A DNA stretch of 64,000 bases from a virus. Lineage: Duplodnaviria > Heunggongvirae > Uroviricota > Caudoviricetes. Each line of letters starts with the position of its first letter. Position 1 is the first letter of the stretch. This document shows, one piece after another, positions 5,637 through 43,033 of this stretch. Made by a program: the position numbers and the translations under genes. Under the pieces are notes generated by a model. That model was not told the origin of the DNA and did not search any database. It saw nothing but the letters and a program-made list of their open reading frames with translations. Where the stretch lies: the IMG/VR virus record IMGVR_UViG_3300033148_004507, one strand, 5' to 3'.

Positions 5637-5666
5637 TTTTATATAAAGACTACATACATACCACCT

Positions 5667-5813: not shown

Positions 5814-6223
5814 AAAGGGGGTCGGCCCAATATAAAAAATGGCGAGAATCTGTGTTGATTAGGGATGAATATACTTGTCAACATTGTGGATTTAAACCTC
5901 ATATCTTAGATATTGGTATCGTTGCTCACCATATATTAAATTATAAAACTTACCCTCTATACAGGTATGACTTGAATAATGGGTTAACATTATGTCATAA
6001 ATGTCATAGGAGACAACACCCAACCTGTATGGGTTCTAAATTTATTCTATATAAAAAAGTTATTGAATTTAAGAATGGCAAATGTGGTGTAGATGTACCG
6101 TTGCATTGGGCGGGAAGAAAGATATTGGTGTATAAAGTAGGTAAATATGGTTTAACTCTACCTACAAAAGATGAATGTATAATGATAGATTGCGGAGATA
6201 GTTATCTGGAAGGTGTGGAATGA
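5810..6223 (+). CDS. HNH endonuclease
   Basis: CQHCG...VAHHI...NNGLTLCHKCH: CxxC-HH-N-CxxCH HNH signature. Confidence 0.8.
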   Translation: MKRGSAQYKKWRESVLIRDEYTCQHCGFKPHILDIGIVAHHILNYKTYPLYRYDLNNGLTLCHKCHRRQHPTCMGSKFILYKKVIEFKNGKCGVDVPLHWAGRKILVYKVGKYGLTLPTKDECIMIDCGDSYLEGVE

Positions 6224-8339: not shown

Positions 8340-8454
8340 TAATAAGAAAGAAAATATAGAATGCCAAATTCCTCTCTCACCTAACTCAAAAGAGTTCAGG
8401 TCAGAGTATCCTTTGGAGGAATTAGAAAACAAAGATAAATAGGAGATGAATTAA

Positions 8455-8961
8455 ATGTTGAATAGAACAATGAATTTTAATATACCGAACAGGGTGTGCG
8501 AGTATCTTGATGAGCCAAGAGACTGTATCTATAAGGGTAGAGAGAATATACACACCTGTTGCCAGGAAGAGTGTCCCTTGATGGTATTGTCTATGAGAGA
8601 AGGCAATTATATCCGAGAAGTTGGAGTTCTCGGCGGTAGGCTAAGAGAACAAGCTAATAAGATGGGGTTGAAAGAAACGGATTTGGTTTATATAGTGACA
8701 TCATCGACTTCAGGCAATCCGCTTCCTATATATGAATTGGAAAAGGTAGATGGTAGCCCATCAGAGTTTTTGGAGAAGAAGGTATTAGAAACATCGAAGG
8801 CAAAATTATCTCCAGAGGAGAAAAGAAAAAGGGCAATTGCCTTTACAAAAGTTATTGATGATATAATCAATGACCCTGATTTCGAGGATAAGCTTGACCA
8901 AATGCCAAGAGATATGTTCGAGATTTCAGAAGAAGAATTGAAAAGAAGATTTACAATGTAG
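8455..8961 (+). CDS. hypothetical protein (Cys-rich N-term)
   Basis: 168-aa ORF in same-strand array; CQEECPLM. Confidence 0.5.
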   Translation: MLNRTMNFNIPNRVCEYLDEPRDCIYKGRENIHTCCQEECPLMVLSMREGNYIREVGVLGGRLREQANKMGLKETDLVYIVTSSTSGNPLPIYELEKVDGSPSEFLEKKVLETSKAKLSPEEKRKRAIAFTKVIDDIINDPDFEDKLDQMPRDMFEISEEELKRRFTM

Positions 8962-8972
8962 GTGATGAAAAA

Positions 8973-9263
8973 ATGGGCAAGCCAAGTTTGAAGCAGATTG
9001 TGGTCAAAACAATCGGGGATTATGTTGAGATAGAGCAACACGTCAAGGAAAGCATGGCTAATGAGGTGGTTCAAGCTTGCCAGAAATTCCACAACTTCCC
9101 ACCAGTGGAACCATCGCCTAAAGAAGCTCCAGAGGGTGATGAGGATGTGAAAGTCTGTACTCGTTGCCAGGGTAGATTAAAAATGTCTGAAGCAATATTG
9201 GATGCCTATATATGCTCAGTCTGTGGGCAGTATTACAAGGCTGAAGATGTGGAGGATGTCTGA
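8973..9263 (+). CDS. zinc-ribbon protein
   Basis: CTRCQGRLK ... CSVCGQYY. Confidence 0.55.
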   Translation: MGKPSLKQIVVKTIGDYVEIEQHVKESMANEVVQACQKFHNFPPVEPSPKEAPEGDEDVKVCTRCQGRLKMSEAILDAYICSVCGQYYKAEDVEDV

Positions 9264-9264
9264 T

Positions 9265-9555
9265 ATGGATAAAATTAGCAAGAGAACGCAGGTATTGATG
9301 GCTATTAGAGAATTCGAGTTATCTGAGGGCCGTGGAATAGGATTTAATGAACTGGTTGAATATATGGACTTAGACAGAGCATCAATATCACTATCTTTGG
9401 ATTTTCTTGACGATATATGGCTCATTCATCAGATTGATTCAAAGTCTGAATTAATTGTTGGCACATGGGGGAAGTTAATATCGACAAGGGTGGACAAGCA
9501 GGCATTCATAGACGACAGCATAAGAAAGATTAAAGATGATGTGGGGGATGAATAA
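9265..9555 (+). CDS. putative winged-helix DNA-binding protein
   Basis: ATG 9265 in-frame in track ORF 9202..9555; QVLMAIREFELSEGRGIGFNELVEYMDL resembles MarR/ArsR-type wHTH. Confidence 0.45.
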   Translation: MDKISKRTQVLMAIREFELSEGRGIGFNELVEYMDLDRASISLSLDFLDDIWLIHQIDSKSELIVGTWGKLISTRVDKQAFIDDSIRKIKDDVGDE

Positions 9556-9556
9556 T

Positions 9557-10051
9557 ATGGAACATAAGATTACAAAAGACGATGTTGAAACATTGATGGG
9601 GCATGGCAAACTACATCTGCCAAATGACGATTGGTTGATATTCTATTATAATACTATCGAGTGTCCGACCTGCGAGGGTAAGGGTGAAGTTCGGGAAAGG
9701 GATGGCTCACGGTTTCGTGGTGACGGCCATTTACACATGAATAAGTGTAAGCCATGCAACGGCACAGGCCGAGTACCCAAGACCTATCGCATATCATGTC
9801 CCAAGTGCAAGGAAACCAGGGATATGGCCTTTGACGGGAACTGGCAATGTACTGTGTGTGGTTATGAGTTTTCAGGCAATCCTCCACACATGATAAAGGA
9901 AGTACCCAAGCCACATCAATGCGATAAATGTTATTGGATTAGGTCTGAAATAGAAACAATATTGGGCATGGGTTATAATGAGGAAGAGATGATAGAAAGA
10001 TTGAATGTTCTTAAGAATGATATAGCTCCCAAGCCACAGGGGGGGAAATGA
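9557..10051 (+). CDS. DnaJ-type CxxCxGxG zinc-finger protein (paralog 1 of 3)
   Basis: ECPTCEGKGEV ... CKPCNGTGRVPK plus further CxxC pairs; ATG 9557 after GGGGGAT SD; C-term ...APKPQGGK encoded by AAGCCACAGGGGGGG junction. Confidence 0.6.
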   Translation: MEHKITKDDVETLMGHGKLHLPNDDWLIFYYNTIECPTCEGKGEVRERDGSRFRGDGHLHMNKCKPCNGTGRVPKTYRISCPKCKETRDMAFDGNWQCTVCGYEFSGNPPHMIKEVPKPHQCDKCYWIRSEIETILGMGYNEEEMIERLNVLKNDIAPKPQGGK

Positions 10052-10284
10052 TGGACACAATCAGAATCTTCAAATGCTATAAAGAAGTCACGCCAGCAGT
10101 AAAGGTCGGAGATGATTTAGTTAAGGGTCGGGCCGTTCCAGTGAAATCATTGGGCAGGGCAACAATTTCAATGGCGAGAAAGGTTGGGTTGGGTGATAAA
10201 GATTTCGTGATTGTATCTATCAAGAAGCTTGAGAGCAGTCCGATAGATTTCGTCAAGGATAAGTTTCGTACAGGTGGTGAGTAG
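10048..10284 (+). CDS. hypothetical protein
   Basis: 78-aa ORF; ATGATG overlapping upstream stop. Confidence 0.5.
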   Translation: MMDTIRIFKCYKEVTPAVKVGDDLVKGRAVPVKSLGRATISMARKVGLGDKDFVIVSIKKLESSPIDFVKDKFRTGGE

Positions 10285-10474
10285 TATGATGATTGCAGGA
10301 TGTATATTGAGTGGTTGCGATAACATTGTGACTCATGAGTTAGGTGGCCGTGGGCTATGCTGTGAGTGTTATAAGAAGGTAATACTTGAAATGCTGGAGA
10401 AAGCGATGGAAACAACACACGATTATCTGAATCTGGGTAATGAGATTGATACTATTATGGAGGCGATGGAATGA
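10274..10474 (+). CDS. zinc-ribbon mini-protein
   Basis: CILSGC ... CCECY. Confidence 0.45.
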   Translation: MVSSMMIAGCILSGCDNIVTHELGGRGLCCECYKKVILEMLEKAMETTHDYLNLGNEIDTIMEAME

Positions 10475-10477
10475 GTT

Positions 10478-10498
10478 GGAAAGGTCAACGACCTTTCC
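10478..10498 (+). terminator. perfect hairpin GGAAAGGTC-aac-GACCTTTCC
   Basis: 9-bp inverted repeat with 3-nt loop immediately after stop of 10274..10474; no clear T-tract, so terminator/operator role is tentative. Confidence 0.35.
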
Positions 10499-10568
10499 TC
10501 GACCTTAATGGGGTCAAGGGATGTGTTATATATGAGGCAGATTAGATTACAAGCAGAGGTGATGAAAG

Positions 10569-10772
10569 ATGAGAATAGAAAGGCGAGATGATAAGGTGTA
10601 TTTGAAATTCGAGAGTCTGGAAGAGGCCGAATCCAAGATGTATGATGCATTGTCATTATTAATGAAGGTGGGTAAAAGCGGTTTAGATGACTCGCAATTA
10701 TCAGATGAGATTATCGATTTCCTTAACGAGAATGGCTGGCCTGAAGGGGATGTCGAGAGGGAATTAAAATGA
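10569..10772 (+). CDS. hypothetical acidic protein
   Basis: 67-aa ORF after AGAGGTGATGAAAG SD. Confidence 0.45.
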   Translation: MRIERRDDKVYLKFESLEEAESKMYDALSLLMKVGKSGLDDSQLSDEIIDFLNENGWPEGDVERELK

Positions 10773-11044
10773 TGCAATGTATATGTCGCAAAGCAATAGG
10801 CCAAAGTGGTGCTTATGGTTTTCATAAATGCGATGGATGTAATAGAGTATATGGCCTTTCTGAAGGTGGTTGGTCATATCACGGGTTCGATTATATTCCA
10901 AAGGAGATTGATTTACCCTATGTAATAAAAGGAGAAACTGAAACAACCTGTTTGCTAAAAGATGTAATTGGATTGATTAAAAATCACGAACTGGAAACGG
11001 CAATTATAAATTTAGAGAGTATAATAAAAGACATAGAGGTGTAA
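10769..11044 (+). CDS. zinc-ribbon mini-protein
   Basis: CICRK ... CDGCNRVY. Confidence 0.5.
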   Translation: MMQCICRKAIGQSGAYGFHKCDGCNRVYGLSEGGWSYHGFDYIPKEIDLPYVIKGETETTCLLKDVIGLIKNHELETAIINLESIIKDIEV

Positions 11045-11048
11045 TAAG

Positions 11049-11423
11049 ATGGATTGCGCAATAATGAACTGCACAGGCTGTAAGAAGCCGATGATTACAT
11101 TGAAAGGCTCCAATGCACAGTTAGAGGACGTTGAGTACAATGTTACAGAGCAATGGTGTAAGGAATGTTCAATCGATGAGTTAGCAATCAAAAGGAAAGC
11201 ACTCTCGCATTTCTCATGGGCGTTCAAAAGATTCATGGACGGTGGAGATTGTTGGGAGGATGCCTTTGGTAAAGCTGTTGATGAGGTTATGGGAGGCAAG
11301 GCAAAGAGCAAAGAAAAGTACATGACGTATTGTTATGATTGTAATAAGGATGTCGAGGTGGACGTTCCGATACACAGCCCTGTGATATGTGATGATTGTG
11401 CTAAGAAAGATAATGGAGAGTGA
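11049..11423 (+). CDS. multi-zinc-ribbon protein
   Basis: CTGCKK, CKECS, CYDCNK, CDDCAK. Confidence 0.55.
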   Translation: MDCAIMNCTGCKKPMITLKGSNAQLEDVEYNVTEQWCKECSIDELAIKRKALSHFSWAFKRFMDGGDCWEDAFGKAVDEVMGGKAKSKEKYMTYCYDCNKDVEVDVPIHSPVICDDCAKKDNGE

Positions 11424-11427
11424 TTAA

Positions 11428-11625
11428 GTGACTGTAGTGGAGAAGGTTAGAATAGTCAACACGGATGAGGTGTACTGCCCAGACGAGGATGGCTGTGTGT
11501 GGTTTGGTGATGGTACAGAATTGATAATGAGATTCGGCAGGGGTCATTGCCCTGATTGTGGCAAAGTCATATCAATATCTATGTCTGAATTGAACAAGAA
11601 ATATAATTACGGGGGTCTGGCATGA
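11428..11625 (+). CDS. zinc-ribbon mini-protein (GTG start)
   Basis: CPDEDGC ... HCPDCGK. Confidence 0.45.
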   Translation: MTVVEKVRIVNTDEVYCPDEDGCVWFGDGTELIMRFGRGHCPDCGKVISISMSELNKKYNYGGLA

Positions 11626-11768
11626 TGGATAGGGATGACATATGTATACATGCCAGTCTACCAGATATAGACGGGGCAAGGCTATGTGTAAATAATAAAT
11701 CAAACAAAGGCCAGAATAAAATATGTGTTGGCGTTCATGCCTGCTCAGATGGTGAGGTGTAAATATGT

Positions 11769-12230
11769 TTGTTGAAAGAATTCACATTGCGAAAGCGAAT
11801 TAGGTTCGGGACGACTAAGATTCCATATGAAAAAACGTATGGTGAGATACTGGCACTTCTCAGAAAGCATGGTTGTAACAGAATTGCGACCATGATGGAC
11901 GGCGATATGGAGATGATTGCCTTTGAGTTGGATGAAACTCCGTATATGATAAAGATTCCGATTGTTTATATCGGCGACCAACCTGAAGATAAGATAGGGA
12001 TACGATTGGTAAAATACTGGCTTGAGACAATCTTGGAATTATCTAAGCAGAGAATTATTGATATGGAATATCTGATGTTGGGTACAAGGATGGTCAAGGT
12101 TGATGGTAAGAGTATGACTGTCAAGGAAGCCTTTGATAATGTTCCGACCCAAAACCTTCTCGATAGCCTATCTGCGAGGACTAAACAACTTGAGGGTGAT
12201 AAGTTCATTGATGTGGGGGGTAATGAATGA
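11769..12230 (+). CDS. hypothetical protein
   Basis: 153-aa ORF, no recognisable motif. Confidence 0.45.
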   Translation: MLKEFTLRKRIRFGTTKIPYEKTYGEILALLRKHGCNRIATMMDGDMEMIAFELDETPYMIKIPIVYIGDQPEDKIGIRLVKYWLETILELSKQRIIDMEYLMLGTRMVKVDGKSMTVKEAFDNVPTQNLLDSLSARTKQLEGDKFIDVGGNE

Positions 12231-12496
12231 AAACACCAGGGGAGAGGAGAATCGAGGGGGCTACGCCAGTAGTTTTACCAGATGGTGATAGATGGTTCGT
12301 GTATGGTTGCCTTAATCTAACTCTGAAGAGCTTTTGCCCATGTACAAAATGTGGTTATTGGGAAGATGATGAATGTGTTCATCCAAATCCAGAAACACAT
12401 CTGGAGGATTCGATTATCAAGGGTAGGTGGGAGATAATGAAGTTCGACATACCAAAGGAGGAAATAATCTTGGATACCATTCCTGATGTCTGTTGA
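12227..12496 (+). CDS. zinc-binding mini-protein
   Basis: CPCTKCGYWEDDECVH. Confidence 0.5.
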   Translation: MKTPGERRIEGATPVVLPDGDRWFVYGCLNLTLKSFCPCTKCGYWEDDECVHPNPETHLEDSIIKGRWEIMKFDIPKEEIILDTIPDVC

Positions 12497-12663
12497 GAGG
12501 AAAGGCTTTTATGGAAATACAGTGTTATGCTATGTGAAGTGGTGGGTGGATTTTGTTAGACTCTCTTCCCCCCGATTAAGTTTTCTTCTTCGCCTTCCAC
12601 TTCTTCATCATTCTTATACTGGCCTCGCAGATTCCTTTGCGGGGCTTTCTTCTCAGGAATTAT

Positions 12664-12713
12664 GACCGCAAAACTATTTATACTCGGAACCCCTACGATG
12701 TGACGGTGATAAC
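12664..12713 (+). promoter_or_regulatory. recurring promoter/RBS cassette: GACCGCAAAACTATTTATACT...GTGACGGTGATAACATG
   Basis: BRE/TATA-like AAAACTATTTATA ~35 nt upstream of ATG; GGTGAT SD 4 nt before ATG; one of ~8 copies in the window. Confidence 0.6.
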
Positions 12714-12932
12714 ATGACAGAAAATGGAAATAAATGTGAAGAACGATGCCCAACTTGTAATGAACTTTGCGAGATTGCAGAGGACAACCATAAAGTCTGG
12801 GTTGAAAAATACGGCCATGCAAAAGGCAGAACTATGAAAGGCCATTATCATTGGAATGGGACAAAGTTACATGAATGGGTCACATTTCCAGGGTGTGAAA
12901 AGGTGAACCAACAATGCCAAGAAGAAAATTAA
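12714..12932 (+). CDS. zinc-ribbon mini-protein
   Basis: ATG at end of promoter cassette; CEERCPTCNELCE. Confidence 0.55.
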   Translation: MTENGNKCEERCPTCNELCEIAEDNHKVWVEKYGHAKGRTMKGHYHWNGTKLHEWVTFPGCEKVNQQCQEEN

Positions 12933-13120
12933 AGATAACTAAAAAAGAAGCTAAAATGCATGGCATCGACTATAATATTATTAATGGTTGCACTGCTTTT
13001 AGCCTCAAAGACGACACATGGGGTTGTAATCGTTGCTGTCAATTTTGTGGTTGTTATGAAGCAGATTACATAAACTATATGCATGAAACAAGCCAATTAC
13101 CAATGAAGGAGGGTAAATAA
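12914..13120 (+). CDS. Cys-rich mini-protein
   Basis: CNRCCQFCGC. Confidence 0.45.
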   Translation: MPRRKLKITKKEAKMHGIDYNIINGCTAFSLKDDTWGCNRCCQFCGCYEADYINYMHETSQLPMKEGK

Positions 13121-13229
13121 TGAGTTTTGCAGGGTATGGTGTACAACCAGAAGATTTCTGCTATTTATTCACACCGGATGAAGGGATGTATGAGGAGTTA
13201 AAATGAGTCGAGAATTGGTATACATCTGT

Positions 13230-14553
13230 GAGCTTGGTAAGGGTGAGTCAACGACCACACAGAACAGAAATGGTCTGGGGGCGAGTCTGAGCAATCAGAC
13301 TTGTGCGTTGATTAGGAGGCAATGAAAAGAATGAAAACCATGCAGAAGTTAGACGGGAGAGATACATACACACCTACGGATGCTCCACAAGTCCGTAGCA
13401 ACTGTGATTCTGTGATTAAACATGACTGCGAGGTAGGTCAAGTGTTACAGAGTTTGAAAACCCCGTCTAACAACTCCGATGTGGACTTACTCCAGCATAC
13501 AGGAGGGCATAATGCCACTATGTATGCATATGTTATAAATAAGAATGGAAAACCACTGATGCCCTGCAAACCTGCCAAAGCAAGGCATCTATTGAAGCAA
13601 GGTAGAGCCAAAGTAATCAACAGGAAGCCATTTACAATCCGACTATTATGGGATTGTGAAGATAATGTGCAACCGATTACGCTAGGCATCGATGCAGGCT
13701 ATAGCAAAGTTGGTTTCAGTGCCGTGTCTGAGAGTAAGGAATTGATGTCTGGGGAGCTAACATTACGAAAAGGCATCAATAAACTCATCGAGCAGAAAAG
13801 CAACTATAGAAGAACAAGACGGAATAAACTTTGGCATCGCCCACCGAGATTCCTGAACAGAGCCAAACCAAAAGGTCGCCTACCTCCGAGCATCCAACAT
13901 AAGCTCGACAGCCATATTAGGCTTGTCGAACAAATGAAAGCAATCCTGCCGATAACAAATGTTATTGTCGAGGTTGCGAATTTTGACATCCAGAAGATAA
14001 AGAATCCAGACATTAAAGGAGTCGAATACCAACAAGGGGAGCAGATGGGCTTTTGGAATGTAAAACCTGTCATGAAGAGCATCATGCGGGTATTGATATA
14101 ATCTCAGCAGTGGCAATCAAGAACTTCAAGCCAGAAACCTTTATGACGGTGGTTAATTGGAAGCTTACAGAACTATTAAATTGTGAGCATACCTTTGGCT
14201 ACATCACGAAGCATAATAGGATTAAGCAAGGTCTTGCAAAGAGTCATGTAAATGATGCGTTTATAATTGCAAGAGGTCATAGTCAGGGGCGATGCAAATA
14301 TTATGAAGTCAATCAAACGAGGAGAAATAATAGAAGCATACAATTGAATCGAAAAGGCTATAAACCATCTATCAGAAGAAAAAGATATAAGCTCCAATCC
14401 AATGACTTAATTAGAGATTCACAAAACAACACTGTTCTGAGAGCAAAGGGTGTATGCTCATATGGGCGGTCAATAAAATTGGAAGATGGGAGATATACAA
14501 ATGTTAAAAATATAAAATTAATATGTTATGGTAAAGGGATATGCTATATATGA
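13230..14553 (+). mobile_element. IS200/IS605-type iscB element (copy 2), left boundary approximate
   Basis: direct repeat of 6880..8339 (by-eye ~85% identity); preceded by a 200-nt noncoding stretch 13121..13321. Confidence 0.7.
13322..14553 (+). pseudogene. iscB: IscB copy 2, inactivated by ~139-bp out-of-frame deletion removing the N-terminal half of the HNH domain
   Basis: same PLMP/RuvC-I/bridge/RuvC-II as copy 1, then ...FWNV | KTCHEEHH...HVNDAFIIARG; CQHCKGK...QVHHIN segment absent; ORF split into 13322..14101 and 14053..14553 at the same TGGAATGT site as copy 1. Confidence 0.8.
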
Positions 14554-24905: not shown

Positions 24906-26213
24906 ATGACAGGCGACAAATTATTTGAATCGGAAAAGACGGAGAACGGATACCTAATCCGCTTCCCGAAGCACAAGCTGGATGACTTTGTGGAAGGTAT
25001 AACTCCTATCCAGAACAAGGCCAAGAAGCTAGGTCTTGGCGAGATAACTTACGAAGTTATTGAAACTTATGATGTAGGCACACCAATTACCATACAGTCT
25101 TGGAAGAGAGATTATGAGATGACTGTCAGGGTCAGGTGGGTTGCAGTTAAAATTATAGGGGAACCGCCAGTTCTTGACGGTTGGAAATTCATCGCATCAA
25201 TGGATGCTTCTGATGAGTTTGGAGTTCTTATTAGGAAGATACCTGACGAGGATGAGGTCATACCTGTCAAATATCTTAAGGACGGTGGAAATCCACGACT
25301 CTGTGAGCAATGCAACAGGAACACGCCACGAAGCAAGTTATACATCGTCAAGAACGTTGAAACAGGGGAATGGAGGCAGGTTGGTTCGACCTGCTTGAAA
25401 GACTTCATAGGTAATGTCACCCCATCCGAGATTGCACAATACTGGCATCTCTTGTATTATGTGGCAGAGGGTTCAAGCGATATGTTTGGTGGCGGGGGAT
25501 TTAGGGAATACGCCAAGCACAATCTTGTGGAATATCTGACTTATGCAAATATGCAGATTCGAAATCACGGATACTTATCAGTCACAAGAGCCGAGGAGCT
25601 TTCAGATATGCTTCGCAGAATCTCGCCGACCTGCGAAATCATTGATTCCATATTACAAACGATACACACAAAGGATAATAATTATGACCATTCAGTGAAT
25701 CCAATCACGATGGACGACTATGTGAAAGCAGAGCAGGTCATCGATTGGGCAATGGAGCTTTCAGATGTGGTGTGCGAGAAGAGTACCTACATGGCAACAA
25801 TTAGGACGATTGCTCAATCTGGCAAAGTACCTTCAAGGCACATGGGGTATGTGGCATCTATGATAAATTCACACACCAAACACCTCTCAGACATGAAGAG
25901 GCTGGACAAAGTTTACGAATATCTGGATGTGGAAGTTGGTGTCAGGTTCGACATTGATGGGGCCGAGGTCATTGGAATCAGGTCATTTGAAAGTCGGTTC
26001 GGAACAACATTCATCTACGACATGGCAAAGGGGAATAACCTCTTTGTCTGGTTCACTGGCAATGAAGGCATGATGGCTCTGGGGGACACGGTATCATTCA
26101 GGGCGACATTGAAGAAGTTCGATGACTATAAGGGCTTGAAGCAGACTGTTGTGACCAGGGCCAAGGTCACGGTGACAAAGGAGGCATTCAAGCTATCTGG
26201 GGGTGAGTCTTAA
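24906..26213 (+). CDS. hypothetical protein, N-terminus MTGDK shared with 36635 and 42095 genes
   Basis: 435 aa; CEQCNRN...GSTC zinc-binding pair. Confidence 0.55.
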   Translation: MTGDKLFESEKTENGYLIRFPKHKLDDFVEGITPIQNKAKKLGLGEITYEVIETYDVGTPITIQSWKRDYEMTVRVRWVAVKIIGEPPVLDGWKFIASMDASDEFGVLIRKIPDEDEVIPVKYLKDGGNPRLCEQCNRNTPRSKLYIVKNVETGEWRQVGSTCLKDFIGNVTPSEIAQYWHLLYYVAEGSSDMFGGGGFREYAKHNLVEYLTYANMQIRNHGYLSVTRAEELSDMLRRISPTCEIIDSILQTIHTKDNNYDHSVNPITMDDYVKAEQVIDWAMELSDVVCEKSTYMATIRTIAQSGKVPSRHMGYVASMINSHTKHLSDMKRLDKVYEYLDVEVGVRFDIDGAEVIGIRSFESRFGTTFIYDMAKGNNLFVWFTGNEGMMALGDTVSFRATLKKFDDYKGLKQTVVTRAKVTVTKEAFKLSGGES

Positions 26214-29566: not shown

Positions 29567-29968
29567 TTGTCAGATAAATTCCATGAATACATGCAAGAGG
29601 GGCTGTGGTTCTATATCGGTGTAATCATAGTGGCAATTTCAGTCTTTGCGAATGCCATGTACGTTCCACATCATTGGCTGAAAACACCTGTGTACTTGAG
29701 TATAATTCTGATTATTCTATGGGTGATTATAATCGGACATTATAACGGTACATACCTTTTTGAGACTGCAAAGAAATGCATCAATGCATTGCTCGGAACG
29801 ATGTTGTTTGGCATTTGGTCTATCTCTGCCATCATTGGCACTGTATATTTTGTGTATGGTGGTGACAAACCGCCTCCAGAGGTGGCGATTATAATATTCA
29901 TTGTGGTAATCGGAATCTTCTTATTTTGTACACAATATATGCAGTACGTTTTTGACGGAGTTGATTGA
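29567..29968 (+). CDS. polytopic membrane protein (TTG start)
   Basis: 4 hydrophobic helices. Confidence 0.5.
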   Translation: MSDKFHEYMQEGLWFYIGVIIVAISVFANAMYVPHHWLKTPVYLSIILIILWVIIIGHYNGTYLFETAKKCINALLGTMLFGIWSISAIIGTVYFVYGGDKPPPEVAIIIFIVVIGIFLFCTQYMQYVFDGVD

Positions 29969-29969
29969 A

Positions 29970-30329
29970 ATGGGTGAGGATGATAAGATTGAGAGGGGCG
30001 AAGTGATTCATCTGGTGCTAACGATTGTAGTTGTGATAGTTATGGCATTGGTTACTTGGGGATTCTTCAATTTCATGGAAGATAGGATGGCAGAGCCAGA
30101 ATATACGGAATATGATTTCGCATTAGGTAATACGACAGTAAAATATAATGGCGAGACTCTGAAAATCAAAATCAGAGACGAAGGCTACTATAAGATTTCA
30201 AAAGTTTATGAGAAAACCAATTCTTCAGAACATTGGTCGGGATGGGATTTAGGGGAAGCTCCACTCGATGAAAGAATAAATGGGGTTAATGTCGTTGAGG
30301 GTTACCAACGAGAAGTTAATTGGTACTAA
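29970..30329 (+). CDS. membrane-anchored protein
   Basis: ATG 29970 right after upstream TGA; TM helix VIHLVLTIVVVIVMALVTWGFF. Confidence 0.5.
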   Translation: MGEDDKIERGEVIHLVLTIVVVIVMALVTWGFFNFMEDRMAEPEYTEYDFALGNTTVKYNGETLKIKIRDEGYYKISKVYEKTNSSEHWSGWDLGEAPLDERINGVNVVEGYQREVNWY

Positions 30330-30348
30330 TTAGCTAAAAACTAATTGG
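30317..30348 (+). promoter_or_regulatory. cluster of palindromic CTAATTAG-family sites (TTAATTGG, CTAATTAG, CTAATTGG)
   Basis: at the transition from + strand array to minus-strand island; same motif family at 35745-35865 and 60656-60735. Confidence 0.45.
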
Positions 30349-30355
30349 TAGATAT

Positions 30356-30775
30356 TTATTTTCCGCCCTTGTTTGTGACGATTCTCTTTTTTATGTATGG
30401 ACAGCCCCTATTGATGATATACAAATCATCTCTTCCCCAATAATCATTTTTACATTGAGTATTATACAAAGGTTTGTGTGTGAAAATCAAAAAATTTTCA
30501 ACATCTCTAATTAATAATTTGGTGATTCTTTGATAATCTGATTTCTCAATATACCCTAACCAGAAAGATAATCCTTGTGTATTCATATCAAAATCTCGTA
30601 GGTTATTTTTAATTTCAGCAACCACATCCATGTGGTAGGCAATACCCATGTAGATTATTCCTCGCCCTCTTTGAAAAGCATAGAAATATGCATCCTCATA
30701 TTCTCTCAATTTACTATATGGTACTTTCACCCAATTAAGTGTCATTCCCTTTTTTGGTTTCACTTTTATTTTCAT
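30356..30775 (-). CDS. hypothetical protein (minus strand)
   Basis: start chosen at MKIKVKPKK preceded (in minus sense) by GGTGAGAGGTGG SD; track ORF extends to 30871. Confidence 0.45.
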   Translation of the reverse strand: MKIKVKPKKGMTLNWVKVPYSKLREYEDAYFYAFQRGRGIIYMGIAYHMDVVAEIKNNLRDFDMNTQGLSFWLGYIEKSDYQRITKLLIRDVENFLIFTHKPLYNTQCKNDYWGRDDLYIINRGCPYIKKRIVTNKGGK

Positions 30776-30921
30776 ATTCCACCTCTCACCGATATATGGA
30801 TGAGAAGCGAAAGGCATTTGGGGAAAGAGAATGGCTTGAATAATTAACAATAATAATTCTCCGCCCCTCACTTCTCAACATATGCATAATTTCGCACAAT
30901 ATAAATGTTTTTGACCATTTA

Positions 30922-31680
30922 TTAAGGCAACTCTTTTCTACAGCTCCCACAGAAATTGTAACCATTTGGATTGGTATCTCCGCAATACGGGCAAAACTTG
31001 TCTATCTTATCGTCTCCAGGTACTAAATTATCATTGTCGTCTATCTTATCATCATCGTACTCTTCCTCTGGTAATCCATATTTTGCAATAAGCTCTGCAC
31101 CAACTGAAACAAGAATTCCACCTATGACACATAGCACCCATCCATATCTTAAGCCTAGTATACTCATTGCTTCGCCAAATGAAATGTCATTAGAAAGAGA
31201 AACAATGTAGAATCCATGTATTAAAACACCTTGGGAAATCAAAGCGATTAAGAATCCTCCAAGATATAGCAATCTACACACATAATATTCTCTTACGGAT
31301 AGAACAATCATGAATAGTATGGCACATAATCCTGCAATCATTGGTAAAAAGTCAAGATACCAGATGTCAAAATAAAGACCAATATTCCATCCAGTAATCC
31401 CACCATAAATTCCATTATAAAATGGCTCAGACATCCCTCTAAAGAATAATATGATTCCAAAGAAGCCAACAGCAGTGCCTATCACAAGAAAAATTGGAGT
31501 TTCTCTATCACCAAAAACTATAGTCTCTTCTTTGACAGACTCATCAGATACAATCATTAAAAACCCAAATATACATAAAAGAAATGATATAGGAAAACTA
31601 ATGTCTACCCACCAGAATAAAAGGCATATTACTGCTAATATAAACATGAATGACCCGATTATACCCAGTTTAATCCTCAT
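30922..31680 (-). CDS. polytopic membrane protein with C-terminal zinc ribbon
   Basis: 6-7 TM helices; C-term FCPYCGDTNPNGYNFCGSCRK; GGTGA SD upstream. Confidence 0.6.
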   Translation of the reverse strand: MRIKLGIIGSFMFILAVICLLFWWVDISFPISFLLCIFGFLMIVSDESVKEETIVFGDRETPIFLVIGTAVGFFGIILFFRGMSEPFYNGIYGGITGWNIGLYFDIWYLDFLPMIAGLCAILFMIVLSVREYYVCRLLYLGGFLIALISQGVLIHGFYIVSLSNDISFGEAMSILGLRYGWVLCVIGGILVSVGAELIAKYGLPEEEYDDDKIDDNDNLVPGDDKIDKFCPYCGDTNPNGYNFCGSCRKELP

Positions 31681-31694
31681 CTCTTCACCGTAAC

Positions 31695-32324
31695 CTAGTC
31701 ATCAAACCTCTTATTTCGTTTATTGACTGCATATAATGGAACTATAATTGCAGGTAATATCGCCATAGTACACACTTCCCCACCAGTATCTTCTCCACCA
31801 GTATCTCCACTAGAACCTCCTCCTGTGTCATCTCCTGTAATAACCACAGTATCATCACCGTTATCCACGACAGAATCCTTGATTATCTGGATAGTGTAGG
31901 TGTATTCCTTAGTGGTTGCAATATCCCATTCAGACCACACACCTTCTTCTGATGCAATTACTTCGATTGTAGCTATATGACTTCCAATATCTACTTGGAA
32001 TTCACTAGGCACAGTTACTTCCCAGGAGAAAGTATAGCTATTCCCTGCTTCTACAATAACACTCGTTTGACTGGATGTATAGCCAGTCATAGCTAAATTC
32101 CAATCAAAAAATAGGTGTACTCTCTCAACCCTCAATGATTCAGAATATGTGTTTGTCAGTACGTATTTAAAAGTATACGCATAATTATTCTTGATACCCT
32201 CTGTTGGCTCTAGTGTTCCAGATACTTCCCATTTATCATATCCCTCAACTGGAATGGCTATTATAATCATTCCTAGGATTATTAGCCAAACTACAATGAA
32301 TCCATATTTTCCCACGATTCTCAC
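31695..32324 (-). CDS. secreted/surface-anchored protein (signal peptide, Gly/Asp/Thr linker, C-terminal TM)
   Basis: N-term FIVVWLIILGMIIIAIPV, DTGGGSSGDTGGEDTGG linker, MAILPAIIVPLYAV + NKRNKR tail; GTG start. Confidence 0.55.
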   Translation of the reverse strand: MRIVGKYGFIVVWLIILGMIIIAIPVEGYDKWEVSGTLEPTEGIKNNYAYTFKYVLTNTYSESLRVERVHLFFDWNLAMTGYTSSQTSVIVEAGNSYTFSWEVTVPSEFQVDIGSHIATIEVIASEEGVWSEWDIATTKEYTYTIQIIKDSVVDNGDDTVVITGDDTGGGSSGDTGGEDTGGEVCTMAILPAIIVPLYAVNKRNKRFDD

Positions 32325-32348
32325 CTAATCGCCTAATGCTGGAAAACT

Positions 32349-32372
32349 ATTTTAAAGTATCCATACGGTACG
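32349..32372 (+). promoter_or_regulatory. promoter-cassette variant GGAAAACTATTTTAAAGTAT in divergent intergenic region
   Basis: resembles GCAAAACTATTTATACT; ~45 nt upstream of GTG/ATG 32415-32420. Confidence 0.4.
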
Positions 32373-32414
32373 CATACCACAGAATACCACATATAGAGAA
32401 AGGACAATCTGGAA

Positions 32415-32606
32415 GTGATGCCAAAGGAATCAAAACGCTATAAATACAAAACAGTAACACTTCCAGAGCCACTCATGGAAGAAATCAAACAATTCATTGA
32501 TGACCATCCCGAACTAGGATATGGTAGTGTTACTGAGTTCATTAAAGAGGCATCTCGTGGTCAAATGAAAGAGTATTATCTTATTATGAAGATGAAGATG
32601 AAGTAG
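32415..32606 (+). CDS. ribbon-helix-helix (CopG/Arc-like) DNA-binding protein
   Basis: KRYKYKTVTLPEPLMEEIKQFIDDHPELGYGSVTEFIKEA = beta-strand + two helices typical of RHH regulators. Confidence 0.55.
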   Translation: MMPKESKRYKYKTVTLPEPLMEEIKQFIDDHPELGYGSVTEFIKEASRGQMKEYYLIMKMKMK

Positions 32607-32655
32607 TTTTGACCACAAAATCGATATATAGTCGTAATCGTTTTAGCAAAGCTAT

Positions 32656-33417
32656 ATGGCTGAAGAAAATGAAGAATGGGAAGAAATGAATAATAAAATA
32701 AAAAGAAAATTAAGTAAAGAAAATGAAGCATTAAGAAGAGAGAATAATAATTTAACTAGAGAGAACATGCAATTGAAAAAAGATAATATTGCTTACAGAG
32801 GGCAGTATAATCTTATTGATGATAGATTTTATGAAATTAATAGTCCAGAGTTGGAAGAATCAGTTATTCATAAAATTTCTGAAGAATTGATAGATGCTTT
32901 AATAAAATGCGATAAATTAGATAATGATGAATATCTATCAAGATATATGCAGATGTATATGGATAAGCCAGATGGGGATTATTATGTGTTCAATTGGGAT
33001 AAGGCAAAGAAACCAGAAAGGTTACATCGGGGAGCTTATAAATTTCTTTTATCACAACTGCCAGAGCAATTACATTTCAAGCAAGAGAGAGAATCTTCAT
33101 TGTCACATTTAGGTAAAGGTGAAAGTCCGAATGAAAGTGACATAATAGGAATTTTAACTTATTTAGATGTAGATATTGCAAAGGGAGAAAGGGGAGCATG
33201 GAATGATTTTTGGATTGATATTATATATGCAAATATAGACAATAAATTAGGATTAAAACAATCTGATATGGTTCAGAAAAGCAAAGATAATTCTCATTCA
33301 TGGGGAAAAGAACCTATTAGGCTCGCTGTAAAAACCTTAAAAGAAAATGGCCTGTTGAAGAAAAAAGGAAGTCGTTATATTATTGATAAAACAAATCTAA
33401 AGATAATCTGTAAATAA
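32656..33417 (+). CDS. hypothetical protein with N-terminal coiled coil
   Basis: 253 aa; KENEALRRENNNLTRENMQLKKDN. Confidence 0.5.
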   Translation: MAEENEEWEEMNNKIKRKLSKENEALRRENNNLTRENMQLKKDNIAYRGQYNLIDDRFYEINSPELEESVIHKISEELIDALIKCDKLDNDEYLSRYMQMYMDKPDGDYYVFNWDKAKKPERLHRGAYKFLLSQLPEQLHFKQERESSLSHLGKGESPNESDIIGILTYLDVDIAKGERGAWNDFWIDIIYANIDNKLGLKQSDMVQKSKDNSHSWGKEPIRLAVKTLKENGLLKKKGSRYIIDKTNLKIICK

Positions 33418-33419
33418 GT

Positions 33420-35200
33420 TGGACTCCTCTTCTGAAGTTGGAAAAAAGTTGTTATTTTGTTGGAAAAAAGTTGTTTTTTACACCATAATTTTGAATTATA
33501 TGGAAATAATCTGTAAATTCACATCCAGTTTAAATGCTATAAGTTTCATAAGATTATATCGCAGTCAAGAAGATTGGTGGCCTCTCGGTGAATGTCGTAT
33601 ACTATATCGAGGCTTCTTGACTGCTCTAAATCATTAAGGTGATTCCTGTAAACGAAGATGATGATGATTATGACAGCAAAACCATAAACGGCAAATGGCT
33701 ACGAAAATGTTATGCTTTACCTATTCAAACTCAACGAAAGTTGACAGATTACCAGAATGACTTAAATAATGTCAATCTGCATAGAATTAAAGTGAGGCCA
33801 GATTATTTGCGTAACCTGACCTCTGGAGCTGATAAGATGTGTTCAACAAAGTTATCAACCCCGAAGAAAGCTATGGATGAAGAGACAAATAAAAGTTTCC
33901 ATACGTTAGTCTATATGAATCCAACAGGCTTCGCTGAGGGGGAAAGTGAGCCAGGTATAAGAATGACAGTTGTAGGGAGTGAATACCCTACCTTTTATCA
34001 AAGTTTTTGGACTGAGCCAGACTTTAGTAACCCGACCAATGACAATCCGATGAGAGCATCCGAATTCTTGAGTAAACTGAATTTGGATAACGTATTAGAT
34101 GCCATTGGTCAGAAATATGGAAATAAAAAATGGCATTTCAGGTATCCTCCTGAAGCCATGATTAAGGCTTTGGTGTTCAAGTACATCAAAGGTTTGAGGC
34201 ACGATACACGCCTAGTAAGATACTTAAAAGCCCATCCCGAAGAGGCGAAATTACTAGGATTCATTGAAGTAAAAGGTGAATTGAAAATACCGAGCCAACA
34301 GACATTCAATCATTTTGTCTTGGCGAGGTTGAGGAATGAAGGATTATATGACATATTTGATAGCCTTGTATTAGAACTCAAGGATAAGATGAGTATGCTC
34401 GGTCTGCAACTGGGTAAAACTGTGTCTGTTGATTCAACGCCTTTATCGAGTATGAAGAATGACAAAGATGCTAAATACAATCCGCATTATGACATTAAAG
34501 GATATAAAGTACATAATGTGATAGATGCAGATTTCTTCCTTCCACTTGCCTTAAATTTCACTACTGCGATAGATGGGGATTCGCCACAGTATCTCCCATT
34601 GTTAGACAGATTACACACGATGGGATTTGATTTTGGGACGATTCTTGCAGATGGAGCTTATGCTTCTCTTGAACATTTTGCAATTGTACATCGGTATTAC
34701 AGAGCCAAAGCCATTTTCAAATTGAAGAAAAATAATCGTATAAGAAAAGAAGGAACATTGAAAGGAATTAAGAAGAGATATGAATCATTATGGAAAAAAG
34801 ATGGATACAAGCCAGATGCAGGAATAGATTACATGCTAGCATTCCTTTATTTTCAAGGTGATATTAAAGCGGTTGGAAGCTATTATCATAACAAGCATTT
34901 TGTGGACTGGACAAATAATTACGATGAGAAAAAGAAGGAATTTAATCAAAGGGCAGGAATAGAGGCGTTTCATGGGCATTTAAAGTATCAGATGAACCTT
35001 GAGATATTTCTTGATAAGAAAGGCATTAGAAACGCTGAAATGCACGTTCAATTGACGTATATCTCATTACTGTGCGTGGCTCTGTGCAGAGTTCAGCATG
35101 GAGTTACTGAGGGTCTTGTGAATGTGAAGTGTCTTGTTTAGGCACTTCTTCTTTATTTTTTTAAAAAATGCAAAGATTAAAGAATAGATTAAGTATTTCC
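33420..35200 (+). mobile_element. IS4/IS5-superfamily insertion sequence (boundaries approximate, terminal IRs not confidently identified)
   Basis: single DDE transposase ORF; upstream tandem TTGGAAAAAAGTTGTT x2 at 33447-33485. Confidence 0.5.
33639..35141 (+). CDS. DDE transposase, IS4/IS5 superfamily
   Basis: N-term FRYPPEAMIKALVFKYIKGL; catalytic VSVDSTP (D), ILADGAYAS (D), NQRAGIEAFHGHLK (R-x3-E-x6-K). Confidence 0.8.
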   Translation: MIPVNEDDDDYDSKTINGKWLRKCYALPIQTQRKLTDYQNDLNNVNLHRIKVRPDYLRNLTSGADKMCSTKLSTPKKAMDEETNKSFHTLVYMNPTGFAEGESEPGIRMTVVGSEYPTFYQSFWTEPDFSNPTNDNPMRASEFLSKLNLDNVLDAIGQKYGNKKWHFRYPPEAMIKALVFKYIKGLRHDTRLVRYLKAHPEEAKLLGFIEVKGELKIPSQQTFNHFVLARLRNEGLYDIFDSLVLELKDKMSMLGLQLGKTVSVDSTPLSSMKNDKDAKYNPHYDIKGYKVHNVIDADFFLPLALNFTTAIDGDSPQYLPLLDRLHTMGFDFGTILADGAYASLEHFAIVHRYYRAKAIFKLKKNNRIRKEGTLKGIKKRYESLWKKDGYKPDAGIDYMLAFLYFQGDIKAVGSYYHNKHFVDWTNNYDEKKKEFNQRAGIEAFHGHLKYQMNLEIFLDKKGIRNAEMHVQLTYISLLCVALCRVQHGVTEGLVNVKCLV

Positions 35201-35208
35201 TAATTTCT

Positions 35209-35724
35209 ATGTGCGAAAGAAAGAAAAGGCAATTATTAAATTTAATAGAAGTTCTTCTCGAAGATATTGAGAAAAATAAAGATGAATGGAACTTACCTAC
35301 CGATGATTCAGATACGCGTGAAGTGGAAGCATGGAATAGTGTACTCGCAATCCAAACAAAACAGCTTAATGATATTGTGAATAACGTTAGAAAGATGTAT
35401 GAAAATGATGAAACTTATGAATTATTAGGAGGGGTCAGGGTGCAGGAGATGATGTCATTTACACAACTATATCTCCCTGCACGAAAACTCTATGCTTTTG
35501 TGAAACATGATATTGAATATGAAGAAAACATTGAATTAAAATGGTTAAAAAATAGATATGAAGAATTAGGCATGTGGCAGAAGAAATTAGAGAAAGACAT
35601 CAAAGGTGTGCCAAATCGAGAAGAATGGGATGATTTTACACAGATGATGGAAGCCACCCTTGAGAATATCCAGACAAAAATTAATGAATTGGAAGAACTA
35701 TCTAAGAGAGGACTTGATTTGTAG
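35209..35724 (+). CDS. hypothetical coiled-coil protein
   Basis: 171 aa, helical/acidic. Confidence 0.45.
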   Translation: MCERKKRQLLNLIEVLLEDIEKNKDEWNLPTDDSDTREVEAWNSVLAIQTKQLNDIVNNVRKMYENDETYELLGGVRVQEMMSFTQLYLPARKLYAFVKHDIEYEENIELKWLKNRYEELGMWQKKLEKDIKGVPNREEWDDFTQMMEATLENIQTKINELEELSKRGLDL

Positions 35725-35744
35725 TGTAATTGAAGGTTACTAAT

Positions 35745-35865
35745 TAGCACTGAAATTTCAAGACAAATTCATAAGTTTTATATAGGTTACTAATTAGAGT
35801 CAAATCTATATTGAAATTGATACCTTTTTATAGGCTACTAATTAAAATCTACTAATTGGTAACCC
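35745..35865 (+). promoter_or_regulatory. four CTAATTAG-family sites (GGTTACTAATTAG x2, GGCTACTAATTAA, CTACTAATTGGTAACC) with TTTTATATA boxes
   Basis: CTAATTAG is itself an 8-bp palindrome; sites at 35750, 35790, 35838, 35852; upstream of phosphatase gene. Confidence 0.5.
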
Positions 35866-35958
35866 TCGTCGTTGATGACTATATTGGAAGGTCAATGATA
35901 TATCTAAGATTAGATAGGGTTGACACAGGGGAAGTTGAGTATGTGAGGGTGAATTAAT

Positions 35959-36583: not shown

Positions 36584-36634
36584 GATAGCAAAACCATTAT
36601 ATACTGTTGGAGCATACTAAGTGACGGTGATAAC
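36584..36634 (+). promoter_or_regulatory. promoter/RBS cassette copy
   Basis: GATAGCAAAACCATTATATACT...GTGACGGTGATAACATG; 60 nt from ATACTAAGTGACGG through GGAGCAGGC identical to 42045 copy. Confidence 0.6.
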
Positions 36635-36856
36635 ATGACAGGCGACAAGGATTCAACTGGAAATGGAGCAGGCAAGGCGAAGGCAATAAACCATGAAACA
36701 CAGAGAAAGGGCGACCCGAAATTCAAAGTATCTTTTTATGTACATGATGCAGGTGAGGACATGTTGAGAGAATGGATTGCTTCACTACTTGATAAAGAAT
36801 CATCTTTTAGACCAGGGGATACGATGGACAGAATAGAGATAGAAGAGGTGGTCTAA
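36635..36856 (+). CDS. hypothetical protein MTGDKDSTGNGAG..., ends EEVV
   Basis: ATG 36635 at cassette end (track ORF 36536 is an upstream extension). Confidence 0.55.
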   Translation: MTGDKDSTGNGAGKAKAINHETQRKGDPKFKVSFYVHDAGEDMLREWIASLLDKESSFRPGDTMDRIEIEEVV

Positions 36857-42044: not shown

Positions 42045-42094
42045 GACAGCATAACTATATATACTGCTGATGTATACTAAGTGACGGTGATAAC
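42045..42094 (+). promoter_or_regulatory. promoter/RBS cassette copy
   Basis: GACAGCATAACTATATATACT...GTGACGGTGATAACATG. Confidence 0.6.
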
Positions 42095-43033
42095 ATGACA
42101 GGCGACAAGGATTCAACTGGAAATGGAGCAGGCGAAGGGATAGAAATCAACCCTATAGACATAGTGCCAGGGAAGGCATTCGAGATAATCTCGATAGGCT
42201 GTACTATGGCTACAGTGGACGGCAGTCTTATTGAATTGAGGGTTGGGACGATAATAAAGGCATTGAATAAGACGGTATACCGCATCGTTCACAATATATC
42301 GTGGCCGTCATTTAAGATAAAGGCAACGATGCCTGATGGGAATGTAATATATGGTATGTATTTTGTAAACTATACATCCCCATTTTCAAGATTCTTAAAA
42401 GAGATAGACGACCCAGACTTTGACGATTCGGGGCGTGTTAAATGCCATATATGCTCTCTCATTCCATTACCAGAGCTTGCCTACAAAGTCAAGGGCGGGA
42501 TTGTATGTAATGAATGTATGCACAAGCATACAGAATACGATTATGATAAGAAGGTGGAAATGCTCATCATTCCAGAGCTTAAAGTCAACAAAGAAGCATT
42601 CAATAAAGATGGGGAATACATATTTTCGACTGTGCATGAGCATGCCAATCACTTTGTTGAAGAGTACAAGGGAATTGAGATTCACCTTAAGAGGGATTTC
42701 CTGCCAGAGCAGAGAGTTCGAGGATACGTGGGCGTAAAGGGCAGTTGCAACGTTATGCCTGGTGCTGTTTGGTACAAGAGCATCACGCAGATTAAAGAGG
42801 GTATAGACACCTTCTTGCAAGCTGGCGGTCTTACAGAACACTATGATAACAAGTATTTCTGGGACTTGACCCATAAGGAGTACGCTAAGTACGAAATATG
42901 TGAGGGTTGTGGCAAGATGGTCTACAGAGACAGTCTGGGGCATATCAAAGAGGACATCACAACAGCAGTTCAGAAGAACGTGCATCACACAAAACACCTG
43001 GGTGAGCATAAATGCAAGGGGAAGGTGGCCTAA
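42095..43033 (+). CDS. Cys-rich protein, N-terminus MTGDKDSTGNGAG identical to 36635 gene
   Basis: 312 aa; CHICS...CNECMHKH, CEGCGK. Confidence 0.55.
   Translation: MTGDKDSTGNGAGEGIEINPIDIVPGKAFEIISIGCTMATVDGSLIELRVGTIIKALNKTVYRIVHNISWPSFKIKATMPDGNVIYGMYFVNYTSPFSRFLKEIDDPDFDDSGRVKCHICSLIPLPELAYKVKGGIVCNECMHKHTEYDYDKKVEMLIIPELKVNKEAFNKDGEYIFSTVHEHANHFVEEYKGIEIHLKRDFLPEQRVRGYVGVKGSCNVMPGAVWYKSITQIKEGIDTFLQAGGLTEHYDNKYFWDLTHKEYAKYEICEGCGKMVYRDSLGHIKEDITTAVQKNVHHTKHLGEHKCKGKVA

Follow-up and report, generated by a model that had tools for sequence, protein, structure and literature searches.

Two clusters of palindromic CTAATTAG-type sites in the 64,000-nucleotide (nt) stretch of IMG/VR record IMGVR_UViG_3300033148_004507 that we analyzed (the window) are, very probably, the terminal and subterminal repeats at the two ends of one 5,571-bp cargo-carrying DDE transposon, located at positions 30297 to 35867 and inserted in a gene of the surrounding virus-like backbone. 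The island carries a transposase gene, a ribbon-helix-helix (RHH)-like accessory gene, and five passenger open reading frames (ORFs). A first-pass annotation of the window had proposed that the sites were operators of a dimeric regulator (the RHH or winged helix-turn-helix [wHTH] proteins) or, alternatively, recombination sites bounding an inserted module. The module was correctly perceived, as the borders of the insertion coincide exactly with the clusters; these borders, however, are those of DDE transposition, with inverted repeats and a target-site duplication, and not of site-specific recombination.

Element borders and insertion site

The island is delimited by perfect terminal inverted repeats (12/12 bp), and a 6-bp direct duplication abuts both of them: the left border reads GTCGTT immediately followed by GAGGGTTACCAA, the right border TTGGTAACCCTC immediately followed by GTCGTT. 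A repeat finder linked the two clusters by an inverted repeat. A perfect 12-bp inverted repeat between shuffled boundary zones was obtained in 60 of 20,000 trials, and the abutting 6-bp duplication adds a further factor of 1/4096, for a joint chance of roughly 0.003 x 1/4096. The features of the insertion site are as follows.

29952..30296, plus strand: 5' part of the interrupted backbone gene; the ORF now ends at 30329, inside the transposon end
30291..30296, no strand: left copy of the target-site duplication, GTCGTT, abutting the left terminal repeat
35868..35873, no strand: right copy of the target-site duplication, GTCGTT, abutting the right terminal repeat
35874..35957, plus strand: 3' remainder of the interrupted gene, displaced by the insertion; the frame continuing ORF 29952 is the only open one

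When positions 30297-35873 (the element plus one copy of the duplication) were deleted in silico, ORF 29952 became fused in frame to 29 more codons. The restored ORF ends in VVDDYIGRSMIYLRLDRVDTGEVEYVRVN and a stop, its TAA lying 1 nt before the ATG of the next gene (35959, encoding a DSPc phosphatase), and the other two frames are closed by early stops after the deletion. Because the reading frame is restored while the others are closed, the island looks like an insertion in the 3' part of a backbone gene, with GGTTAATGTCGTT joined to GATGACTATAT as the putative empty-site junction.

The G+C content of the island is 0.346 versus 0.416 for the flanks, with local values of 0.34-0.36 inside and 0.40-0.47 outside. 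The gene content given in the first-pass annotation was borne out, with three minus-strand ORFs, an RHH-like ORF, a 253-amino-acid (aa) ORF, a 500-aa DDE transposase, and a 171-aa ORF. A composite transposon is contradicted, since the island holds only one transposase gene and one pair of ends, and no second insertion sequence (IS) copy was found in the window.

Related elements in archaea

Homologous transposases (37-60% identity) are rare and were found in Methanomassiliicoccales genome bins and similar archaeal-type contigs, here designated by L numbers. The tip and sites of the window element recur in all contexts that extend as far as an end. The complete related elements are listed below; with the window copy, complete elements range from 3.1 to 9.1 kb.

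L006, 7555-11906: 4,352 bp, duplication TTTTG
L004, 6793-11443: 4,651 bp, duplication CCTAA
L005, 4511-13574: 9,064 bp, duplication CCTCT
L021 (distant member), 6953-10012: about 3,060 bp, duplication TTTTT or CTTTTT

Single ends were seen in L003, L009, L019, and L020. The sequence of the duplication differs at each insertion, from GTCGTT in the window to TTTTG, CCTAA, CCTCT, and TTTTT or CTTTTT in the relatives. All complete copies (L021 left out) are richer in AT than their flanks, with G+C contents of 0.33-0.38 versus 0.42-0.52, an AT shift like that of the window being found in three chromosomal copies. The only gene common to all elements with ends is the transposase gene. Cargo is unrelated between copies, no homology having been detected between elements except for that of the 252-aa window ORF with L019 and a weak zinc-ribbon match. 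The archaeal chromosomes with the same ends share no other sequence with the backbone of the window.

The L005 copy has an extra, internal A-type end (see below) at position 7296. A separate 2.8-kb element at 4511-7296 was considered and rejected, since the matching CCTCT shows that the mobile unit is 4511-13574. The cargo of this copy includes a TIR-domain gene (CAP12-PCTIR_TIR), HicA, and zinc-ribbon genes, and some members of the family may ferry defense or toxin genes.

In four archaeal contigs, elements lie near an SBP_bac_5 ABC-transporter operon, that is, in the same chromosomal neighborhood at different intergenic positions (L003, 8559-8800; L005, 13575-15004; L006, 11907-12107; L019, 6430-6711). 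This suggests an insertion hot spot beside the operon. At L004, a (CCCTAGA)n heptamer tandem repeat (6757-6792) abuts the left end of the element, and the region just outside the right end (11457-12910) contains a further CTAATTAG and another transposase, which belongs to the same superfamily (28% identity).

Two types of transposon end

Each end begins with GAGGGTTAC and holds several copies of an oriented 11-bp site, YYAATTRGTAR (read from the tip inward), the core of which is the palindrome noted in the first-pass annotation. The orientation of the sites relative to the tip is constant and their distances are conserved. A reading of the sites as direct plus-strand repeats was discarded as an artefact of the palindromic core: once the flanks are included, the sites are inverted between the two ends.

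30297..30351, plus strand: left A-type end; terminal inverted repeat GAGGGTTACCAA at 30297-30308; site cores at 30316-30323 (TTAATTGG), 30326-30333 (CTAATTAG), and 30341-30348 (CTAATTGG), lying at nt 20, 30, and 45 counted from the tip
35733..35867, minus strand: right B-type end; terminal inverted repeat TTGGTAACCCTC at 35856-35867; site cores at 35852-35859, 35838-35845, 35790-35797, and 35740-35747, lying at nt 9, 23, 71, and 121 counted from the tip
35825-35832, at nt 36-43, and 35777-35784: TATA-like boxes facing outward

In the A end the sites are at about nt 9, 30, and 45, the terminal one often being degenerate, as in GAGGGTTACYAACGAGAA; examples are the left ends of the window element, L005, L009, and L010 and the right ends of L006 and L021. 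In the B end, sites at nt 9 and 23-24 are accompanied by the sequence TATWWAAA at exactly nt 36-43. It is exemplified by the right ends of the window element, L004, and L003 and the left ends of L006, L020, and L021, with the left end of L019 being similar. Every complete element has one A end and one B end. The left end of the window element is colinear with the right end of L006 (84% identity over 58 nt), and its right end, which has two extra sites (nt 71 and 121) and a second TATA-like box, matches the left end of L006 and an internal end in L005.

Read on the outward strand, the B-end box is TTTWWATA, the archaeal TATA consensus. It is confined to one end type (L006, 7590-7597; L004, 11401-11408; L003, 8517-8524; L020, 100-107; L021, 6988-6995) and is kept even in the distant member. 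It could be an outward promoter or the site of a DNA-bending factor.

Two relatives have changed sites. The three sites of L010 (43% identity) are still found at +9, +31, and +45 but with CTCATGAG as the core, and in L021 the sites read CYAATTGGCTAC. Thus, the sequence of the sites covaries with transposase divergence. This covariation is the best available evidence that a protein encoded by the element, most simply the transposase, would read the end sites.

The right-end 19-mer had no match in IMG/VR. A search of metagenome contigs with the B-end 19-mer gave eight matches, apparently all due to chance and none accompanied by a transposase or a second site; seven of the eight were in high-GC contigs, and the eighth (L018, G+C 0.36) was on a 1.3-kb contig.

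Distribution of the sites in the window

The palindromic site clusters are real but local. The window has three exact copies of CTAATTAG (30326, 35740, and 35790), all of them at the island borders; this count is in itself not significant (1.4 expected; 3 or more in 19 of 100 shuffles). Variant cores are found at 30341 and 35852 (CTAATTGG), 30316 (TTAATTGG), and 35838 (CTAATTAA). The second cluster starts at 35740, not at 35745 as initially given.

Across the whole window, the loose variants (YTAATTRR) are at chance level, with 31 matches versus 29.5 expected, and also fall within long ORFs (e.g., at 3185, 30507, 58394, and 59699). What departs from chance is the clustering: the longer motif ACTAATTRR has nine matches versus 2.8 expected, with none of 100 shuffles reaching nine, and six of these matches lie in the two clusters (30325-30348 and 35739-35859). 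The first-pass statement that the sites are almost exclusively noncoding therefore holds for the extended motif only. Nine of the 10 best window matches to a weight matrix built only from the sites of other loci are within the two clusters, and the other 58 kb of backbone contains the extended motif only as one weak match at 3182.

Sites had also been reported inside a palindrome at 60.65 kb. These turned out to belong to a separate repeated motif, TGTACAACYAATTAAT, which scores poorly with the transposon-site matrix. The region is a nested palindrome (60638-60755) with an outer perfect 11-bp inverted repeat (ACACTGGCTCT and AGAGCCAGTGT), the arms of which are separated by 96 nt. This repeat encloses a hairpin (60646-60703; arms of 23 nt), and the region holds three TGTACAACYAATTAAT copies. 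This TGTACAACYAATTAAT palindrome may be an origin or a regulatory element.

The RHH-like gene and its relation to the ends

32415..32606, plus strand: RHH-like protein, 63 aa; true start probably ATG 32418
32350..32372, plus strand: RHH promoter region; TATA-like TTTTAAAGTA (32350-32359), then palindrome CATACGGTACG (32362-32372)

The RHH-like gene has four homologs (67-82% identity), in L005, L009, L019, and L020, all within this transposon family; three of them adjoin the transposase gene, or what is left of it, in convergent orientation. The gene was thus present in 5 of the 10 loci screened; a hidden Markov model search of all six frames found none in L003, L004, L006, L008, or L010, and the gene table of L021, a locus outside that screen, shows no RHH gene inside the element. 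The protein had no Pfam RHH match and no sequence match in the PDB. An AlphaFold2 model (predicted local distance difference test score of 76) shows two helices after an extended N terminus; in a Foldseek search it came closest to RHH proteins (ParB of pCXC100, ParD2, and ORF56), with E values of 2-6 that are not significant.

The sequence conservation detected by blastn reaches upstream of the RHH ORF, and an alignment of the upstream regions from the window, L005, and L009 gives a palindrome with the consensus CATACNGTATG, unrelated to CTAATTAG. A palindrome directly after a TATA-like box is in the classical position of an archaeal repressor site, and the CATACNGTATG-type palindrome is the likelier candidate for an RHH operator.

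An alternative to transposase recognition is that an RHH-like dimer binds the sites. These would then be operators for transcription of the island, or else the dimer would act at the ends as an accessory factor, recruiting or repressing the transposase; the transposase itself would read only the GAGGGTTAC tip. Accessory factors of this kind exist, as in Harbinger elements, where the end-binding protein is Myb-like. The dyad symmetry of the site core, the recurrence of the RHH gene in half of the loci screened, often adjacent to and convergent with the transposase gene, and a structural model compatible with the RHH fold all fit this possibility. We nonetheless consider it unlikely. L004 and L006 have the same sites at their tips, complete ends, and intact duplications, but no RHH gene; in L010 and L021 the site sequence has changed, in step with the transposase in L010, with no RHH gene present; and the RHH gene has a conserved TATA-proximal palindrome of its own. 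Moreover, the orientation of the sites is fixed relative to the tip, and a weight-matrix scan of the window found no transposon site at either the RHH or the transposase promoter. Nor is the view of the sites as operators of the RHH or wHTH proteins supported. In our view, then, the RHH gene is an accessory gene that is carried by part of the family and regulates itself; its product perhaps has a regulatory role at the transposon ends but is not the reader of the end sites.

Other explanations and points that weigh against a transposon

A further explanation would assign the sites to the virus-like backbone, as its promoter or operator elements, and treat the island as simply a variable region, the repeat and duplication being coincidental. 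Two right-hand sites do directly follow TATA-like boxes (TTTATATAGGTTACTAATTAG and TTTTTATAGGCTACTAATTAA). Yet the extended motif is virtually confined to the island borders, the same ends occur in archaeal chromosomes otherwise unrelated to the backbone, and the joint chance of the inverted repeat and the abutting duplication is that calculated above, making this explanation highly improbable. The idea that the clusters are attachment sites of an integrative element recombining at the CTAATTAG core can be dismissed almost entirely, for although direct TACTAATTAG copies are present at both borders on the plus strand and the right tip of L005 (GGGGTCACCAATTAGTGCCCC) resembles a dyad core site, no tyrosine or serine recombinase was found in or beside the island, the sites are mutually inverted once their flanks are included, and the flanking duplications differ per copy, a signature of staggered-cut transposition and not of a shared crossover core.

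Several points do count against the cargo-carrying transposon as proposed here. Comparison of the 30.3-35.9 kb block with relatives yielded three available contigs, 100% identical and all with the island, and no empty site or island-less relative; the empty-site 24-mer had no matches in the metagenome contig collection. The restored backbone protein has no full-length homolog; only its truncated form, from the same genome, was matched. The length of the duplication varies, being 6 bp in the window, 5 bp in each of L004, L005, and L006, and either 5 or 6 bp in L021. The orientation of the transposase gene relative to the A and B ends also varies, that in L006 and L021 being opposite to that in the window, L004, L005, and L009. 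Finally, that the transposase binds the sites is something we infer, and the dyad symmetry of the core would fit an accessory protein acting as a dimer as well.

The transposase and its classification

33639..35141, plus strand: DDE transposase, 500 aa; DUF772 and DDE_Tnp_1 domains

The transposase scores above the Pfam cutoffs for DDE_Tnp_1 (56.5 bits versus 23) and DUF772 (32.7 versus 23.1). Residues D265, D338, and E442, together with R438 and K449, are invariant in six sequences, giving the motif R438-x3-E442-x6-K449; in the wider Y/F-x2-R-x3-E-x6-K signature, the window protein has F435 where its relatives have Y. The start codon is uncertain, as the relatives begin near residue 85-90.

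Among 5.8 billion proteins, only five relatives with 43-60% identity were found. In a scan of species-representative genomes, the transposase was detected only in two Methanomassiliicoccales bins and one uncultured-archaeon bin (L008, 37%). A profile search of 1.84 billion cluster representatives returned 104 matches at E<=1e-30 and 1,236 at E<=1e-3. There was no match to the transposase among PDB sequences, PLSDB plasmids, or INPHARED phages, and a protein search of IMG/VR found no relative of either the backbone or the transposase.

The initial "IS4-type" label is loosely right in that DDE_Tnp_1 and DUF772 are present, but the NCBIfam score for IS4 is only 37 bits against a cutoff of 115, and even the best model, IS1182, gives 84.3 bits versus a cutoff of 270. 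IS5 (32/140), IS1380 (35/180), and IS701 (24/250) are likewise below their cutoffs. The comparison was by NCBIfam models, which ISfinder families such as ISM1, ISA1214, and ISC1217 do not have. Ten sampled members of the wider clade, which comprises about 100 clusters, are equally unclassified, with IS1182 scores of 31-60 bits. Literature searches found no description of the transposon family. While the kind of object, a cargo-carrying DDE transposon, is known, the family, its two-type multisite ends, and the fixed TATA-like box appear to be undescribed.

Cargo genes of the island

30356..30871, minus strand: passenger ORF, 171 aa; no family match
30922..31680, minus strand: passenger ORF, 252 aa; C-terminal zinc ribbon weakly matched (DUF7577/DZR), below Pfam cutoffs
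31695..32324, minus strand: passenger ORF, 209 aa; no family match
32656..33417, plus strand: passenger ORF, 253 aa; no family match, no homolog in other elements
35209..35724, plus strand: passenger ORF, 171 aa; no family match

The first of these ORFs was called at 139 aa by the Joint Genome Institute on L002, a contig of identical sequence. The 252-aa ORF looks, from its sequence, like a multipass membrane protein, and its homolog in L019 (30% identity over 206 aa, E = 1e-21) adjoins the RHH gene. PADLOC defense models gave nothing credible on the window cargo, which had no resistance or defense matches. Upstream of the transposase gene are a 22-bp tandem repeat (GTTGGAAAAAAGTTGTT, two copies; 33437-33479) and a hairpin with a perfect 12-bp stem (GCAGTCAAGAAG...CTTCTTGACTGC; 33561-33624; RNA fold z = -2.9).

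The backbone element

The backbone has all of its long ORFs on the plus strand and a strongly positive GC skew, and most of its ORFs match no family. Among the recognizable genes are those for a PKD-repeat protein, RlaP, an RNA ligase, a Band_7 protein, and a DSPc phosphatase. Contigs from two other samples are 100% identical to the window, island included. We call the backbone a virus-like extrachromosomal element, ORFan-rich and of at least 126 kb; the distribution of the transposon points to Methanomassiliicoccales as its probable host.

A 435-aa ORF (24906-26213) near the RNA ligase and RlaP genes matches phrog_2319; aligned over >90% of its length, it is about 25% identical to jumbo-phage hypothetical proteins (from Salicola SCTP-2 and from the Vibrio KVP40 group). 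A secondary blastn match revealed a backbone repeat of about 95 bp (36584-36677 and 42045-42138; 90.5% identity). The backbone also has two loci with HEARO (IscB omega-type) RNAs, each overlapping the start of an RRXRR ORF.

6887-7132: HEARO RNA, overlapping the start of RRXRR ORF 6973-7845, which is followed by overlapping ORF 7695-8339 (HNH domain)
13247-13490: HEARO RNA, overlapping the start of RRXRR ORF 13322-14101, which is followed by overlapping ORF 14053-14553

Since in both cases the RRXRR ORF is followed by an overlapping second ORF, the IscB-like genes (6887-8339 and 13247-14553) appear to be split over two frames.

Proposed mechanism and significance

The transposon would have inserted in the 3' part of a gene of the unidirectionally coded virus-like element, duplicating GTCGTT. 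In the mechanism that we propose, the N-terminal DUF772 region of the transposase would bind the iterated sites, and the bound transposase would pair the two unlike ends, A and B, cut at the GAGGG tips, and insert the element with a 5-6-bp stagger. RHH most likely would autoregulate its own promoter and perhaps also transposition, without being required for the ends to exist. What we observe are the anatomy, the duplications, the conservation across the family, and the covariation of the sites; the binding protein, the reaction chemistry, and the function of the TATA-like box are proposals built on them.

A broader interpretation is offered more tentatively. The elements possibly constitute an undescribed, archaea-specific family of cargo DDE transposons, mainly of Methanomassiliicoccales, that moves between the chromosome and a large virus-like element and has functionally differentiated ends. 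The canonical archaeal TATA box of the B end, fixed at nt 36-43 and overlapped by transposase sites, might then serve either as an outward promoter that restarts transcription of the interrupted operon or as a bending site dependent on the TATA-binding protein, like that of integration host factor (IHF) at the outside end of IS10.

The transposon explains both the low-GC opposite-strand island and the motif clusters, with no new regulatory system needed. It also presents a host-type transposon moving cargo genes into an ORFan-rich virus-like element. A rare family with conserved two-type ends is a tractable case in which to study end recognition by archaeal DDE transposases, and a test case for the possible co-option of basal transcription factors. 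The practical gain is modest: one more IS/transposon family for use in annotation pipelines and a marker that can help to assign hosts.

Comparison with known systems

The present elements resemble those of the IS1182, IS5, and IS4 types in having DDE_Tnp_1 with an N-terminal DUF772, the D, D, E residues and R-x3-E-x6-K motif, inverted repeats, and a short duplication. They differ in their size of 3-9 kb with variable passengers, compared to 1.3-2 kb, in their several iterated sites and two end types, and in scores far below the family cutoffs.

Passenger genes between IS ends reportedly define the "transporter IS" (tIS) of Siguier, Gagnevin and Chandler (2009). As in tIS and unit transposons, one transposase gene and unrelated passengers are contained within one pair of inverted repeats, and the cargo varies by copy. 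Unlike tIS, the present elements are archaeal, and the window copy has no resistance or defense match, whereas L005 carries the TIR-domain and HicA genes.

IS10/Tn10, of the IS4 family, also has nonequivalent ends, one of which carries an AT-rich IHF bending site at about nt 30-43, near the outward promoter pOUT; here the TATA-like box occupies nt 36-43 and is at the B end only. Unlike the present elements with their iterated sites and 5-6-bp duplication, IS10 lacks iterated sites and generates a duplication of 9 bp; moreover, archaea are not known to have IHF.

Iterated subterminal transposase-binding sites and asymmetric ends are known from Tn7, Mu, hAT Ac/Ds, and PIF/Harbinger elements. The transposase of the present elements belongs to a fold family that has no relation to TnsB or MuA, and no ATPase or target-selector gene is present. 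Harbinger elements need a separate DNA-binding protein, whereas the only candidate for one here, RHH, is dispensable for the end structure. The likeness lies in the architecture of the ends, with several oriented short sites within 50-120 bp of each tip that differ in number and spacing between the two ends.

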